A stretch of 64,000 nucleotides of DNA from an uncultured delta proteobacterium. GTDB lineage: Bacteria; Myxococcota; Myxococcia; Myxococcales; Anaeromyxobacteraceae. Below are positions 1,030-7,853 of the stretch, piece after piece. The notes under the pieces are model-generated. The model was not told the DNA's origin. It did not search any database and saw nothing but the letters and a program-made list of their open reading frames with translations. Every line of letters starts with the position of its first letter. Position 1 is the first letter of the stretch. Both the position numbers and the translations under genes were made by a program. Where the stretch lies: the NCBI GenBank assembly GCA_963814585.1, contig CAWFDF010000003.1, positions 484,920 to 548,919 of the forward strand, given 5' to 3'.

Positions 1030-1107
1030 ATGCGCCTGACGTTCCTCGAGTCCCAGATCCACCGGGCGTCCGTCACGCCCGCCGACCTCCACCGGCCAGG
1101 CAGGTGA
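1030..1107 (+). pseudogene. panD: 25-codon ORF resembling the N-terminus (beta chain) of aspartate 1-decarboxylase PanD
   Basis: MRLTFLESQIHRASVTPADLHRPGR* aligns without gaps to the PanD N-terminal pattern M-x-x-T-x-L/F-K-S-K-I-H-R-A-T-V-T-x-A-D-L-x-Y-E-G-S. No downstream PanD sequence follows. Confidence 0.6.
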
Positions 1108-1135
1108 CGGCATGACGGTGTTGCTTTGGCGCTGA
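1102..1135 (+). promoter_or_regulatory. SD (AGGTGA), 7-codon ORF MTVLLWR* and prfB-like +1 shift site CTT-TGG-C at the start of trpE
   Basis: AGGTGA 1102-1107, ATG 1112, CTT 1124-1126, TGG 1127-1129, TGA 1133-1135. The +1 frame (TTT GGC GCT GAT CTG...) is the TrpE frame. Confidence 0.55.
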
Positions 1136-2687
1136 TCTGCGCCCCCAGCCAGACCTCCCGACGTTCCTGAAGCTCTGCCGCCCCGGCCGTGCCGTCCCGG
1201 TGCGCGTCGAGGTGGATGCCGACACCGAGACCCCGGTCTCGGCCTTCCTGAAGCTGTCCCGTGGCCACCGCCACGCCTTCCTGCTCGAGTCGGTCGAGGG
1301 CGGCGAGCGCAGCGCCCGCTTCACCTTCCTGGGCGCCGGCCCGCGCCGCGTGCTGCGCTGGAAGCTGGGCGATCCGGCCGACCCCCTCGACGCCATCCGC
1401 GCCGCGCTGGTCGGCCACACCGCCGTGCGCGTGCCCGGCACCCCGCCCTTCTCGGGCGGCCTGGTCGGCCACGTCGCCTGGGACGCGGTGCGGCTCTTCG
1501 AGCCGAGGGTGCCGGTCTCCAGGCCCGACGAGCTGGGCTTCCCCGACGTGCTGCTGGGCGACTACGACGAGGTGGTCGCCTTCGACAACGTGCGCCACTC
1601 CCTCCACGTGGTCTGCGAGGTGCGCTGCGACTTCGGCGACGACCCCAGGGCGCTCTACGCCGCCGCGGTGAAGCGGATCGCCGCCACCATCAAGGCGCTG
1701 GCCCGGCCGCTCGCCGACCGGAGGGCCCGGCGCGGCGCCACGCCGGCCACGCTCCGTCCCCGCACCGGGAAGCCGGCCTTCCTGGCGGCCATCGAGCGGG
1801 CCAAGGAGTTCGTCCGCGCCGGCGACTGCCAGCAGATCGTCCTCTCCCAGCGCTTCGACGCCGAGGTCTCGGTGCCGCCCTTCGAGATCTACCGGGCCCT
1901 CCGGCGCGTCAACCCCTCGCCCTACCTCTTCTTCCTGCAGGACGGCGACCGGGCGCTGGTCGGCTCCTCGCCCGAGACGCTCATCAAGCTGCAGGACGGC
2001 GAGATCACGCTGCGCCCCATCGCCGGGACCCGGCGGCGTGGCCGCGACGCCGCCGAGGACGCGGCCCTCGAGGCCGAGCTGCGCGCGGACCCCAAGGAGA
2101 ACGCCGAGCACGTCATGCTGGTCGACCTCGGCCGCAACGACGTGGGCCGCGTGGCCGCCATCGGCTCGGTGCGGCTGACGGCGCTCCGGACCGTGGAGCG
2201 CTACTCCCACGTCATGCACCTGGTCTCGGAGGTGAAGGGGCGGCTGGCCCCGGGTCGCACCGCGGTCGACGTGCTGCGGGCGGGCTTCCCGGCCGGCACC
2301 GTCTCCGGCTCGCCCAAGGTGCGGGCCATGGAGATCATCGACGAGCTGGAGCCGGCCCGGCGCGGACCCTACGCCGGCGCCGTCGGCTACTTCGACCGCG
2401 GCGGGAACATGGAGCTCTGCATCGCCATCCGCACGCTCATGGCCAACGGCCGGCGCGTCTCGGTCCAGGCCGGAGCCGGGCTGGTCTACGACTCGGTGCC
2501 GGAGACCGAGTACCAGGAGACGGTCAACAAGGCCCGGGCCATCTTCACGGCCGTGGCGCAGGCCGAGGCCCGGGTGCTCGACGCGGTGGCCCGGGCACCG
2601 GCGGCCCGCCCGGCCCGGACCCGGCCGCGCCGCCCCGGGCCGGCGAGACGGCCGGCCCGACGCGCCGGAAAGGGAGGGCGTCCATGA
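1112..2687 (+). CDS. trpE: Anthranilate synthase component I (ATG 1112 joins the main frame only through a +1 shift at ~1125; first in-frame GTG at 1200)
   Basis: ETPVSAFLKL, LLESVEGG, NPSPY, SSPE, IAGTR, EHVMLVDLGRND, GTVSGSPK motifs. The TrpE frame is open from 1116 and reads DLRPQPDLPTFLKLCRPGRAVPV before GTG 1200. Confidence 0.95.
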
Positions 2688-3277
2688 CCACGCTGCGCGT
2701 CCTCCTCGTCGACAACTACGACTCCTTCACCTTCAACCTGGTCCAGTACCTCGGCGAGCTGGGTGCCGACGTCACGGTCCACCGGAACGACCAGATTGAC
2801 GTGGCCGGGATCCGCGCCGCGCGCCCCGACGGCCTGCTCCTCTCCCCCGGCCCCTGCACGCCCGACCAGGCTGGCGTGACCCTGGCCGCCATCGAGGCCC
2901 TGGCCGGCGACCTCCCCATCCTCGGCGTCTGCCTGGGCCACCAGGCCATCGGCCAGGCCTTCGGCGGCGTGGTCCGCCGCAACGAGCGGATCGTCCACGG
3001 CAAGGCCAGCCCGGTGCACCACCTCGGGAGCGGGCTCTACGCCGGTTTGCCCAACCCGTTCCAGGCCGGCCGCTACCACTCGCTGGTGGTGGACCGGGCG
3101 ACGCTGCCCGAGACGCTCGAGGTCACCAGCTGGACGGCGGAGGGGGAGATCATGGGGCTGCGCCACCGGACCCTCGACGTCGAGGGCGTGCAGTTCCACC
3201 CCGAGTCGATCCTGACCGAGGCCGGCAAGCCGCTGCTCTCCAGCTGGCTGGCCCGGCTGGCGGGGAGGACGCCGTGA
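2684..3277 (+). CDS. trpG: Anthranilate synthase component II (glutamine amidotransferase)
   Basis: DNYDSFTFNL, SPGPC, GVCLGHQ, RYHSL, QFHPES motifs; ATGA overlap with trpE. Confidence 0.95.
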   Translation: MTTLRVLLVDNYDSFTFNLVQYLGELGADVTVHRNDQIDVAGIRAARPDGLLLSPGPCTPDQAGVTLAAIEALAGDLPILGVCLGHQAIGQAFGGVVRRNERIVHGKASPVHHLGSGLYAGLPNPFQAGRYHSLVVDRATLPETLEVTSWTAEGEIMGLRHRTLDVEGVQFHPESILTEAGKPLLSSWLARLAGRTP

Positions 3278-4284
3278 TCCAGCAGGCCCTGGCGAGGCTG
3301 CTCGAGGCCCACCCGCTCACCCGGGCCGAGGTGGCGGCGGTGATGAACGAGATCGCCGACGGCGCGGCCACGCCGGCGCAGGTCGGCGCCTTCCTGGCCG
3401 CGCTCCGCATCAAGGGGGAGACGGTCGACGAGATCACCGGCGCCGCCGAGGTGATGCGGGCACGGTCCGAGAAGGTCCACGTCGCCGCCCAGGTCTTCGT
3501 CGACACCTGCGGCACCGGCGGGGACGCCCGCAACACCTTCAACATCTCCACCACCGCGGCCTTCGTGGTGGCCGGGGCCGGCGTGGTGGTGGCCAAGCAC
3601 GGCAACCGGGCCGTCTCCTCGCGCTCCGGATCGGCCGACGTGCTGGGGGCGCTGGGGGTCGACGTGGACGCGCCCACGCCGGTGGTGGAGCGGGCCATCG
3701 CCGAGGTGGGGATCGGCTTCCTCTTCGCGCAGCGGCTCCACCCGGCCTTCAAGGCGGTGGCCGGCATCCGGCGCGAGCTGGGGGTCCGCACCGTCTTCAA
3801 CCTGCTCGGCCCGCTGGCCAACCCGGCCGGCGCCCGCCACCAGGTGATGGGGGTCTACGAGCCGCGCTGGGTGCCGGTCCTGGGCGGCGTCCTCTCCGCC
3901 CTGGGCGCGGTGCACGCCTTCGTGGTGCACGGCGAGGGGCTCGACGAGATCGCCGTCACCGGCATGACCCACGTCGCCGAGGTGAGGGGCGGCGCCGTGG
4001 AGCGCTACTGCGTGCTGCCCGAGGACCTCGGCCTGCCGCGCCGGCAGGAGTCGGAGCTGGCCGGTGGCGACGCGGTCCGGAACGCCGCCATCCTGCGCGA
4101 CGTCCTCTCCGGGCAGCAGGGCGCGCCGCGCGACGCGGTGCTGGCCAACGCCGCCGCGGCGCTGGTCTGCGCCGGCGCGGCCGCCGACCTCCGCGGCGGC
4201 GTGGGGGTGGCGGCCCGCTCCATCGACTCCGGGGCCGCGACCGAGAAGCTGCGCCGCCTCATCGAGGCGACCCGGCCGGCATGA
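3274..4284 (+). CDS. trpD: Anthranilate phosphoribosyltransferase
   Basis: DTCGTGGD, NISTT, KHGNRAVSSRSGSADVL, RTVFNLLGPLANP motifs. Confidence 0.97.
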   Translation: MIQQALARLLEAHPLTRAEVAAVMNEIADGAATPAQVGAFLAALRIKGETVDEITGAAEVMRARSEKVHVAAQVFVDTCGTGGDARNTFNISTTAAFVVAGAGVVVAKHGNRAVSSRSGSADVLGALGVDVDAPTPVVERAIAEVGIGFLFAQRLHPAFKAVAGIRRELGVRTVFNLLGPLANPAGARHQVMGVYEPRWVPVLGGVLSALGAVHAFVVHGEGLDEIAVTGMTHVAEVRGGAVERYCVLPEDLGLPRRQESELAGGDAVRNAAILRDVLSGQQGAPRDAVLANAAAALVCAGAAADLRGGVGVAARSIDSGAATEKLRRLIEATRPA

Positions 4285-5063
4285 ACACCTACCTGGACGC
4301 CATCCTGGCCCGGAAGCGCGCCGAGGTGGCGGCGCTGGCCGCGGCCCGGCCCGAGGCCGAGCTGCTGGCCCGGCTGGCCGACGCCCCGGCGGCGCGCGAC
4401 TTCGCCGGCGCCCTCTCGCCGCGCGGCGGACCGATCCGCGTCATCGCCGAGGTGAAGCGGGCCAGCCCGTCGGCCGGCGTCATCGCGACCGGGCTCGACG
4501 CCGTGGCGCAGGCGCGCTGCTACCAGTCGGCCGGCGCCGCCGCCATCTCGGTCCTGACCGATGGTCCCGGCTTCGGCGGCTCGCTCGACGACCTGGTGGC
4601 GGTGCGCGCCCGGGTGGAGCTGCCGGTGCTCCGCAAGGACTTCACGGTGGGAGGCTGGCAGCTCGTCGAGGCGCGCGCGGCCGGCGCCGACGCCGTGCTG
4701 CTCATCGCCGCGGCGCTGCCCGGCGACCAGCTGCAGCGGCTCCACGACCGCTGCGGCGAGCTGGGGCTCCACGCGCTGGTGGAGGTCCACGACGAGTCCG
4801 AGGTGGAGCGGGCGCTGGCCGCGGGGGCCAGCCTGGTCGGCGTCAACAACCGGGACCTCCACACCTTCGCCGTGGACCTCGCCACCTCGGAGCGGATCAT
4901 CCCCGCCCTGCCCGGGCACGTGAAGGGCGTGGCCGAGAGCGGCGTGCGCCGCGGGGCCGACGCCAGGCGCCTGCGCGCCGCCGGGGCCGCCAACCTGCTG
5001 GTGGGCGAGGCGCTGGTCCGGGCCGCCGATCCCGGCGCCCTGCTCCGGGAGCTCTGCGCGTGA
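4281..5063 (+). CDS. trpC: Indole-3-glycerol phosphate synthase
   Basis: IAEVKRASPS, SVLTD, LRKDF, GVNNRDL, VAESG motifs. Confidence 0.96.
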   Translation: MNTYLDAILARKRAEVAALAAARPEAELLARLADAPAARDFAGALSPRGGPIRVIAEVKRASPSAGVIATGLDAVAQARCYQSAGAAAISVLTDGPGFGGSLDDLVAVRARVELPVLRKDFTVGGWQLVEARAAGADAVLLIAAALPGDQLQRLHDRCGELGLHALVEVHDESEVERALAAGASLVGVNNRDLHTFAVDLATSERIIPALPGHVKGVAESGVRRGADARRLRAAGAANLLVGEALVRAADPGALLRELCA

Positions 5064-5673
5064 CCGTGCGGGTCAAGATCTGCGGCCTGACCCGGCTCGA
5101 GGACGCGCTCTGCGCGGTGCGGCTGGGCGCCGACGCGCTCGGCTTCAACTTCTGGCCCGGCTCGAGGCGCTTCGTCTCGCCGGCCGAGGCGCGGGCCATC
5201 ATCCGGCGGCTGCCGCCGCTGGTGACCACCGTGGGGGTGTTCGTCGATCCCTCCCATGACGAGGCGGTGGCCGCGGCCGCCATCGCCGGCGTGCAGGTGA
5301 TCCAGCTCCACGGCGCCGAGTCGCCCGCCTTCTGCCGCGCCTTCCAGCTCCCGGTGCTGAAGGCCCTCCCGGTGGGCGGTCCCGAGGCGCTGGCGGCGGC
5401 GGCGCCCTACGCCGGCCTGCCCGGCCTCCTGCTCGACGCCCCCTCCCCCGGTCACGGCGGGAGCGGCCAGCCCTGCCACTGGCCCACCGCCCGGACCCTC
5501 GCGGCGGGGACGCCCGTCGTCCTGGCCGGAGGCCTCCACCCCGGAAACGTGGCCGAGGCCATCGACGCCGTCCGCCCGTACGGCGTCGACGTCGCCAGCG
5601 GCGTCGAGCGATCCCCGGGCGTGAAGGACCACCAGCTGCTGGCGCGCTTCATCGCCGCCGCCAAGGAGCCGCC

Positions 5674-5677
<4 letters not shown>
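5060..5677 (+). CDS. trpF: Phosphoribosylanthranilate isomerase
   Basis: GTG 5060 overlaps the trpC stop; [30 protein letters not shown] motifs (3' part of track ORF 4064..5677). Confidence 0.95.
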
Positions 5678-7055
<1,378 letters not shown>

Positions 7056-7059
<4 letters not shown>

Positions 7060-7853
7060 ACCGGATCCAGGCCACCTTCGCCCGCTGCCGGGCCGAGCGC
7101 CGCGCCGCGCTGGTCACCTACGTGATGGGGGGTGACCCCGACCTGGCCGGGTCGAAGGCCCTGGCGCTCGCCTGCCTCGACGGCGGGGCCGACCTGGTGG
7201 AGGTCGGCGTCCCCTTCTCCGACCCCATCGCCGACGGCCCGACCATCCAGCTGGCGGCCGAGCGATCGCTGCGCCACCGCACCACCCCGCGCGACTGCCT
7301 GGAGGTGGTCCGGGCGGTGCGGGCCCGCGGCGAGGTGCCGGTGGCGCTGATGGGCTACCTCAACCCGCTCCTCTCGGCCGGCTTCGAGCCCTTCGCCGCC
7401 GAGGCGGCCGCGGCCGGAGCCGACGCCTTCATCATCCCGGACCTGCTGCCCGAGGAGGCCGGCGAGCTGGGCGCCATCGCCGCGCGCCACGGCCTGGCGC
7501 TGGTGTTCCTGCTGGCTCCGACCTCGACGCCGGCACGGGTCGAGGCGGCGACGAGGGCGGCGACGGGCTTCCTCTACTTCGTCTCGGTGACCGGGGTCAC
7601 CGGCGCCAGGGCCGAGCTGCCGGCCGACCTCGGCGCGCGCGTCGCCACGGTCCGCGCCGCCAGCCCGGTGCCGGTGGTGATCGGCTTCGGGGTCTCGACG
7701 CCGGACCAGGCCCGCGCGCTCGGCTCGCTGGCCGACGGCGTGGTGGTGGGGAGCGCCATCGTCTCGCGCGGCGCCGCACCCGGAAGCCGGAGCGCGAAGG
7801 CGAGGCGGGTGAAGGCCTTCGTGGCCTCGCTGGCCCGGGCGCTGCGGAGGTAG
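7056..7853 (+). CDS. trpA: Tryptophan synthase alpha chain
   Basis: GTG 7056 overlaps the trpB stop; [36 protein letters not shown] motifs (3' part of track ORF 5895..7853). Confidence 0.96.

Follow-up and report, generated by a model that had tools for sequence, protein, structure and literature searches.

A conserved CTT-TGG cassette at the start of trpE in Anaeromyxobacteraceae: a candidate +1 frameshift responsive to Trp-tRNA supply

The textbook catalogue of trp regulation comprises the repressor, the attenuator, TRAP and the T-box; in trpL leaders, Trp codons report the supply of Trp-tRNA. To our knowledge, few chromosomal genes of bacteria carry a regulatory frameshift that is conserved. 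In prfB, peptidyl-tRNA-Leu slips from CUU to UUU upon slow decoding of the A-site codon. Curran and Yarus, as well as Sipley and Goldman, are said to have observed in E. coli that a UGG codon in the RF2 site supports shifting and that this shifting responds to tRNA-Trp. The RF2 site consensus consists of an SD, a spacing of 3 bases and CTTT (PMC12421855), and a 2016 review describes CUU-U as the most efficient RF2 shift site (PMC5009743). The same review describes Ty1 CUU-AGG-C as dependent on slow decoding in the A site and on GGC as the +1 codon, and states that no natural hungry-codon shift with a functional starvation product had been found (PMC5009743). Two further sources report +1 shifting in vitro at CUU-UGU, with a Cys codon in place of UGA and an upstream hairpin present, under Cys limitation (PMC6321510), and a model with more shifting at low cognate tRNA (PMC2377451).

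The locus considered here lies in a window (the whole analysed stretch of DNA, 64,000 nucleotides) from an uncultured member of the Anaeromyxobacteraceae, and all its features are on the plus strand. The initiation SD AGGTGA (1102..1107), with an anti-SD duplex of about -11.9 kcal/mol, precedes a zero-frame leader ORF (1112..1135) which starts with ATG 1112, contains seven sense codons including CTT TGG (the only Trp codon) and stops at TGA 1133-1135; re-reading of the window bore out this arrangement, described in the earlier note. Within the leader, an internal SD-like element GGTG (1117..1120), complementary to this genome's 16S tail, is placed 3 bases 5' of the predicted +1 shift site CTT-T (1124..1127, with CTT at 1124-1126), where peptidyl-tRNA-Leu would move from CUU to UUU. 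The putative sensing codon TGG (1127-1129), which would occupy the A site, overlaps the +1 codon GGC (together 1127..1130). TrpE, anthranilate synthase component I, is encoded in the +1 frame (1128..2687), including 24 codons located 5' of the annotated GTG 1200. As also claimed earlier, this frame is +1 to the leader and a TGA (1113-1115) closes it. ATG, GTG and TTG are absent from it up to GTG 1200. Identification of TrpE relies on PF04715 and PF00425 matches followed by trpG within the trp operon. The trpG, trpD, trpC, trpF, trpB and trpA genes follow (2684..7853), each start overlapping the preceding stop (ATGA or GTGA); trpG, D, C and B were assigned by Pfam, F and A were named from translations and gene order. 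Long Arg/Pro/Ala-rich C-terminal tails are present in TrpB (6970-7059) and TrpE (2590-2687), and their length varies across relatives.

The distribution of the cassette was evaluated by protein similarity as well as by pattern. Searching 251 genomes of the order for TrpE gave matches in 88 of the 91 genomes that belong to the family, the window's own not counted. The family sample consists of 85 of 89 genomes; G080, G231 and G241 (the latter two with matches lacking the 5' end) and G233 (place not listed) were left out, and G080 later matched the pattern scan. The non-family sample is 20 of 113 matching genomes, hand-picked mainly from the top ranks. CTTTGG was found in the leader frame at the trpE start in 85/85 family genomes and in 5 of these 20 from other families. 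The family count is not circular, since the set was chosen by TrpE protein similarity and not by the pattern. A pattern scan of 401 genomes of the phylum found matches in 65/66 genomes of the family, 12/172 of a second family and 1/20 of a third, while the reversed-pattern control gave 3. Pattern matches in G292 and on contig C23 of G120 were not trpE and were dropped. In a scan of 185,579 species genomes with a stricter pattern, all 83 matches were trpE with CTT in the leader frame; as TrpE of another family, or with a different spacing or SD variant, would escape this pattern, the result does not establish wider absence. The 80 titled records among them belong to Anaeromyxobacteraceae, Myxococcaceae, Archangiaceae or loosely named delta/Proteobacteria bins. 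Named carriers include Anaeromyxobacter oryzae Red232 (complete chromosome), A. terrae SG22, A. soli SG29, A. oryzisoli SG63 and strain PSR-1. Altogether we considered 95 carriers: 90 from the similarity-chosen set and 5 found by pattern.

The CTT-TGG cassette before trpE is real, being neither an assembly error nor a chance occurrence. The earlier note had named one spurious T in the TTT run as the main alternative; this is excluded by the 85/85 family genomes, which include single-contig ones, and by the complete Red232 chromosome. The continuous frame (CTTGGC) expected in relatives if the T were spurious was found in none of them: CTT-TGG stays in the leader frame in 85/85 family genomes and in 83/83 pattern matches, and the succession of a start codon, a few codons, CTT TGG and a stop is present across the family (85/85). 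The suspicion of indel errors in this assembly held for other genes, which do contain frame breaks, but not for the trpE site, which has none. Contigs of two public runs, X8 (DNA) and X17 (RNA library, evidence consisting of one contig of a related organism), span the site without gaps. Run X1, which matches the window best, was not counted as it may be the window's source and ends 2 bases past the site.

CTT, TGG and the +1 codon GGC are each invariant in 95/95 carriers. The codon three before the CTT site ends in G in all 95 (ACG in 81, never ACC), the codon two before is GTG in 93, GAG in one and GGG in one, giving the SD-like element as GGTG in 93, GGAG in one and GGGG in one; G at -7, -6 and -4 is invariant in 90/90 carriers. 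By rough counts over long ORFs of this genome, CTT makes up about 2.5% of Leu codons, while ACC and ACG account for about 66% and 31% of Thr codons. Selection therefore acts on the bases themselves, since CTT and ACG are invariant or dominant here though CTT is rare and ACG represents only 31% of Thr codons. The heptamer CTTTGGC has 70 occurrences in the 8.7 million strand positions of this genome. The spacer is variable, with 16 different codons across carriers (TTT in 53/95), and the leader stop follows 1-12 codons on (TGA in 82, TAG in 10 and TAA in 3 carriers). When the pattern was relaxed to six T-starting codons and any next base, 78/78 matches read TGG-C. This tally and those of the 401-genome scan include genome G172, on which no claim rests.

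The evolutionary history of the cassette was approached with a tree of 32 hand-chosen proteins (14 from the family, 10 other carriers and 8 in-frame genes), rooted at the midpoint and built without an AU test. The cassette label needs three changes on this tree and fits one gain plus two losses. On it, carrier G173 has in-frame G189 as its sister (100/100), and carrier G417 clusters with in-frame G120 (92/86). Carrier TrpE proteins are down to 56% identical. Judging from this tree, the carriers would represent about one evolutionary origin and not 95 independent cases.

panD is the usual upstream neighbour of the leader. Relatives have a complete panD with a stop codon that overlaps the start of the leader, and panD motifs are located 5' of the leader in 79/85 family genomes. 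In the window, the remnant of panD (1030..1107, 25 codons; weak PF02261 match, E 0.003) ends 4 bases 5' of the leader start, and alignment to intact panD of two congeners shows a deletion of 310 bases. Congeners G001, G005 and G009 lack panD here altogether, each of them keeping a leader-frame ATG. panD has been lost repeatedly from the trp operon, and the leader-frame start was kept every time. The leader start reads ATGA or GTGA in 83/85 family genomes, and a leader-frame ATG or GTG is found 3-19 codons before CTT in 95/95 carriers, preceded by an SD with a median of -7.9 kcal/mol. In G001 and G153 the usual ATG has turned into ACG, and another leader-frame ATG is present a few codons 5'. 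Leader length varies by whole codons across carriers; distant carriers have leaders of 18-19 codons with unrelated sequence behind a TTGACA-like box (by eye), and in three metagenome contigs with a shorter spacing the gene is likewise trpE and the leader has 18 codons. Two distant carriers (L239 and L240; G242 and G183) have a second TGG as the spacer, giving a W-L-W leader. In L240 the trpE-trpG junction also differs from the usual ATGA overlap. By eye, positions 991-1020 of the window contain promoter-like TTGCGG and TAACAAT elements some 9 bases ahead of the ATG of panD, and two congeners share them; their placement suggests a nearly leaderless transcript. A sigma-70 scan of 900-1400 called no promoter.

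The 24 codons 5' of the annotated GTG show the pattern of variation expected of sequence that codes in the TrpE frame. Over the 21 codons before the GTG-1200 position, entropy by codon position in the 85 family genomes is 0.54/0.44/1.12, a third-position signature of this frame. The residues P, F, P and G are invariant and the TrpE frame of the stretch is free of stops in 85/85, while the other frames contain stops in 33 and 8 genomes. The structure PDB 5cwa aligns from the third residue past the shift and 7bvd from the eleventh. The earlier observation that TrpE-like sequence is already encoded before GTG 1200 is thus well founded. The annotated start itself is GTG in 59/85 genomes, and GTC, GTA, GTT or another codon in the other 26. 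Public annotations pick inconsistent downstream starts, giving 526, 493, 491 or 489 residues, and none of ten inspected cluster members starts with the leader; if the frameshift is real, trpE starts would be mis-annotated across the family.

The likeness to prfB was said to hold position for position. This is correct for the spacing and for CTT-T, while the SD-like element differs: it is GGTG here and GGGG in all family prfB sites (49 of 61 genomes matched). The prfB of this genome (G000, contig C8, 471230, minus strand) reads GGGGG-TCG-CTT-TGA-C, 22 codons past the start. The trpE of G175 has the GGGGG-NNN-CTT form of this prfB, with TGG. Pairing of GGUG amounts to -5.7 versus -9.8 kcal/mol for prfB, and its best pairing is two bases off the prfB register. 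GGTG may be a weak stimulator that keeps basal shifting low, or it may act otherwise. By sequence, the layout is that of prfB: a zero-frame ORF leads into the site and the main protein lies in the +1 frame without a conserved start of its own. The trpE site is therefore best read as one that works like prfB but is no member of the RF2 family, its A-site codon being UGG and not UGA.

We consider it likely that trpE carries a +1 programmed frameshift, like those of prfB and Ty1, whose rate is set by Trp-tRNA supply and which gates the coupled trpEGDCFBA operon. Taken separately, frameshifting at trpE is highly probable, its dependence on Trp is, overall, likely, and the slip would take place at CUU-U. 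Translation would begin from the ATG of the leader, through coupling to the stop of panD in most family members. With plentiful Trp-tRNA, UGG would be read and translation would stop one to a few codons on, yielding no TrpE. With scarce Trp-tRNA, the ribosome would wait, its P site holding CUU and its A site UGG, peptidyl-tRNA-Leu would re-pair from CUU to UUU with the aid of the SD-like element, and GGC would be read next. The predicted product is TrpE with five leader residues at its N-terminus. As each downstream trp gene overlaps the previous stop, the switch would probably set the output of the whole operon, through translational coupling and Rho polarity. This genome has one tRNA-Trp, tRNA-Leu(GAG) and tRNA-Gly(GCC), and its Rho RNA-binding domain matches are two strong and one weak (contigs C4, C11 and C12 of G000).

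Other means of trp control were searched for in the same genome. TrpR, TRAP and T-box were not found in this 92% complete genome, while the controls were positive in E. coli or B. subtilis; at this completeness the absence of the regulators is not established. No Rfam leader was found at trpE and no intrinsic terminator in 900-1400. The traits of a trpL attenuator are also missing: there is one Trp codon and no tandem, there are no alternative hairpins or terminator, and the leader overlaps trpE. It is fairly probable that an amino-acid-sensing frameshift is the main Trp switch of the family, replacing repressor, attenuator and riboswitch.

Further cassettes of this kind were looked for genome-wide. 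A loose short-leader scan gave at least 222 candidates, mostly spurious; a stricter scan missed trpE, and its relaxed version gave 8 candidates: trpE, prfB and six that are not recognisably amino-acid genes. No credible cassette, codon-swapped or otherwise, was found within 120-240 bases at the 5' ends of 18 loci in this genome: hisG, trpB2-like, cysK-like and other PALP genes, amino-acid kinases and a second PF04715 gene. The relaxed scan showed no codon-swapped cassette either. Several of these loci have peculiarities of their own. The stand-alone trpB2-like gene (G000, C3, 229527-230543) has an ordinary in-frame ATG and no cassette. Two cysK-like genes (C14, 567895-568720 and 573009-573892) contain several frame breaks, and one of them lies in AT-rich surroundings unlike the rest of the genome; the pair is likely to reflect assembly errors or foreign DNA. 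In the gene of an argB-like amino-acid kinase (C10, near 168563), the ATG and the domain stand in different frames, probably owing to an indel. Two near-identical hisG copies (C9, 8857 and C7, 46393), one of them at a contig end, are probably an assembly overlap.

A real +1 frameshift could also operate at a fixed ratio, keeping TrpE constitutively low, with the Trp codon a by-product of CUU-U plus GGC and Trp supply mattering little. GGC is invariant here and important in Ty1, and U followed by GG yields UGG automatically; moreover, TrpE retains LLES and NPSPY, which we take to be parts of the feedback site, so feedback control at the enzyme level may suffice. However, out of 13 sense codons starting with U it is that of Trp which is used, in the first gene of a trp operon, in 95/95 carriers and 78/78 pattern matches, and two distant carriers have the second TGG as spacer. 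Whatever the origin of the codon, a ribosome at the site would have to compete with Trp-tRNA. We regard a fixed ratio as improbable.

Less probable still, and in our judgement quite unlikely, is that no frameshift takes place, the leader being a uORF and TrpE having a start in its own frame, through re-initiation immediately past the leader stop or from a downstream GTG under the control of RNA structure (translational attenuation). Close to the leader stop, at most about four codons away, the TrpE frame offers ATG, GTG or TTG in 28/95 carriers and CTG in a further 42, in-frame orthologues G189, G120 and G101 start about there, and databases annotate such starts; but 25/95 carriers have no such codon near the stop, and 12/95 have no ATG, GTG or TTG in this frame before the D-x-x-T-P motif, that is, before the conserved core. 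The 131 downstream in-frame starts are without SDs (median -2.6 kcal/mol). A weak hairpin can enclose the site, its mean of -5.7 kcal/mol barely exceeding that of shuffled tails (-5.4); each of its pairs is kept in 31-54 of 54 distinct sequences and a single change may be compensatory, it is missing in several distant carriers, and RNAalifold found no consensus RNA structure over the 95 carriers. A uORF would leave the invariant rare CTT unexplained, and stalling at UGG would reduce re-initiation, which is the wrong sign. Two other starts were noted. G001 has an ATG in the open TrpE frame 16 codons 5'; by eye, it lies upstream of the -10 region of the promoter. A third-frame TTG start, located 5 bases past GGTG, opens an ORF of 4-100 codons that is unconserved and not TrpE, and was rejected.

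There is only a very slight chance that the frames are joined by transcriptional slippage or by other recoding, such as a -2 shift or RNA editing. The TTT spacer of 53/95 carriers does extend the site into a T-rich tract, yet the only invariant run is three T and many carriers have a T-poor spacer; the X17 contig crosses the site without an indel, a minor point coming from one contig of a related organism; and re-pairing for a -2 shift is unconserved, the preceding bases being variable. A sequencing or assembly error or a pseudogene, which frame breaks in other genes and the deleted panD might suggest, is practically negligible in view of the 85/85 family genomes, the single-contig ones and Red232 among them, and of the otherwise intact trpE and operon.

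The earlier statement that no trp operon is described as regulated by frameshifting agrees with the literature searched, in which we found no trpE frameshift or such trp control; coverage was thin for subscription papers. The main text and two of the three supplements of the GeneTack survey (PMC3711429) contain no mention of trp, anthranilate or Anaeromyxobacter. Term searches of PMC13245932, PMC8915115, PMC10798248 and bioRxiv 10.1101/2025.10.02.679949 returned nothing relevant. As far as this literature goes, control by frameshifting would add to the trp catalogue: if true, the pathway is switched on at Trp shortage by a one-base forward slip at a Trp codon, throughout a family of soil and sediment bacteria. 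The site makes the question of a natural hungry-codon shift testable with a 20-base cassette and offers a compact, codon-swappable amino-acid sensor.

Among known systems, hungry-codon frameshifting in starved E. coli shares with the proposed switch a shift at the codon short of aminoacyl-tRNA, but such shifts are known either as errors or from sites that were engineered. Antizyme shares a +1 shift that responds to a metabolite (polyamine) and joins sensor and effector (PMC5009743). In trpL attenuation and in Chlamydia YtgR, the latter according to PMC7755916, Trp codons in a short upstream ORF likewise report Trp-tRNA supply to the trp operon; in the trpE cassette, in contrast, the output would consist in a switch of reading frame that leads into the enzyme itself, and one Trp codon would suffice. 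The yeast Ty1 and ABP140 sites (CUU-AGG-C) have in common with trpE CUU in the P site, a sense codon in the A site and GGC in the +1 frame. This sequence form is present at trpE, where UGG would be the slow codon at low Trp-tRNA. Ty1 differs in being eukaryotic and lacking an SD, its AGG is slow through a rare tRNA and not a regulated amino acid, and the tRNA re-pairs to UUA. prfB, with its SD-NNN-CUU-UGA-C site, shares a short zero-frame ORF, an SD-like element 3 bases 5' (at trpE GGUG, in another register), CUU-U and C after the A-site codon, as well as a functional protein made from the +1 frame only, whose product feeds back (presumably also for trpE) on decoding of the A-site codon. The trpE leader differs in having only about 5 codons to the shift and in serving a biosynthetic enzyme that heads an operon. 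While prfB has UGA and senses RF2, the trpE site has the sense codon UGG and would sense Trp-tRNA.
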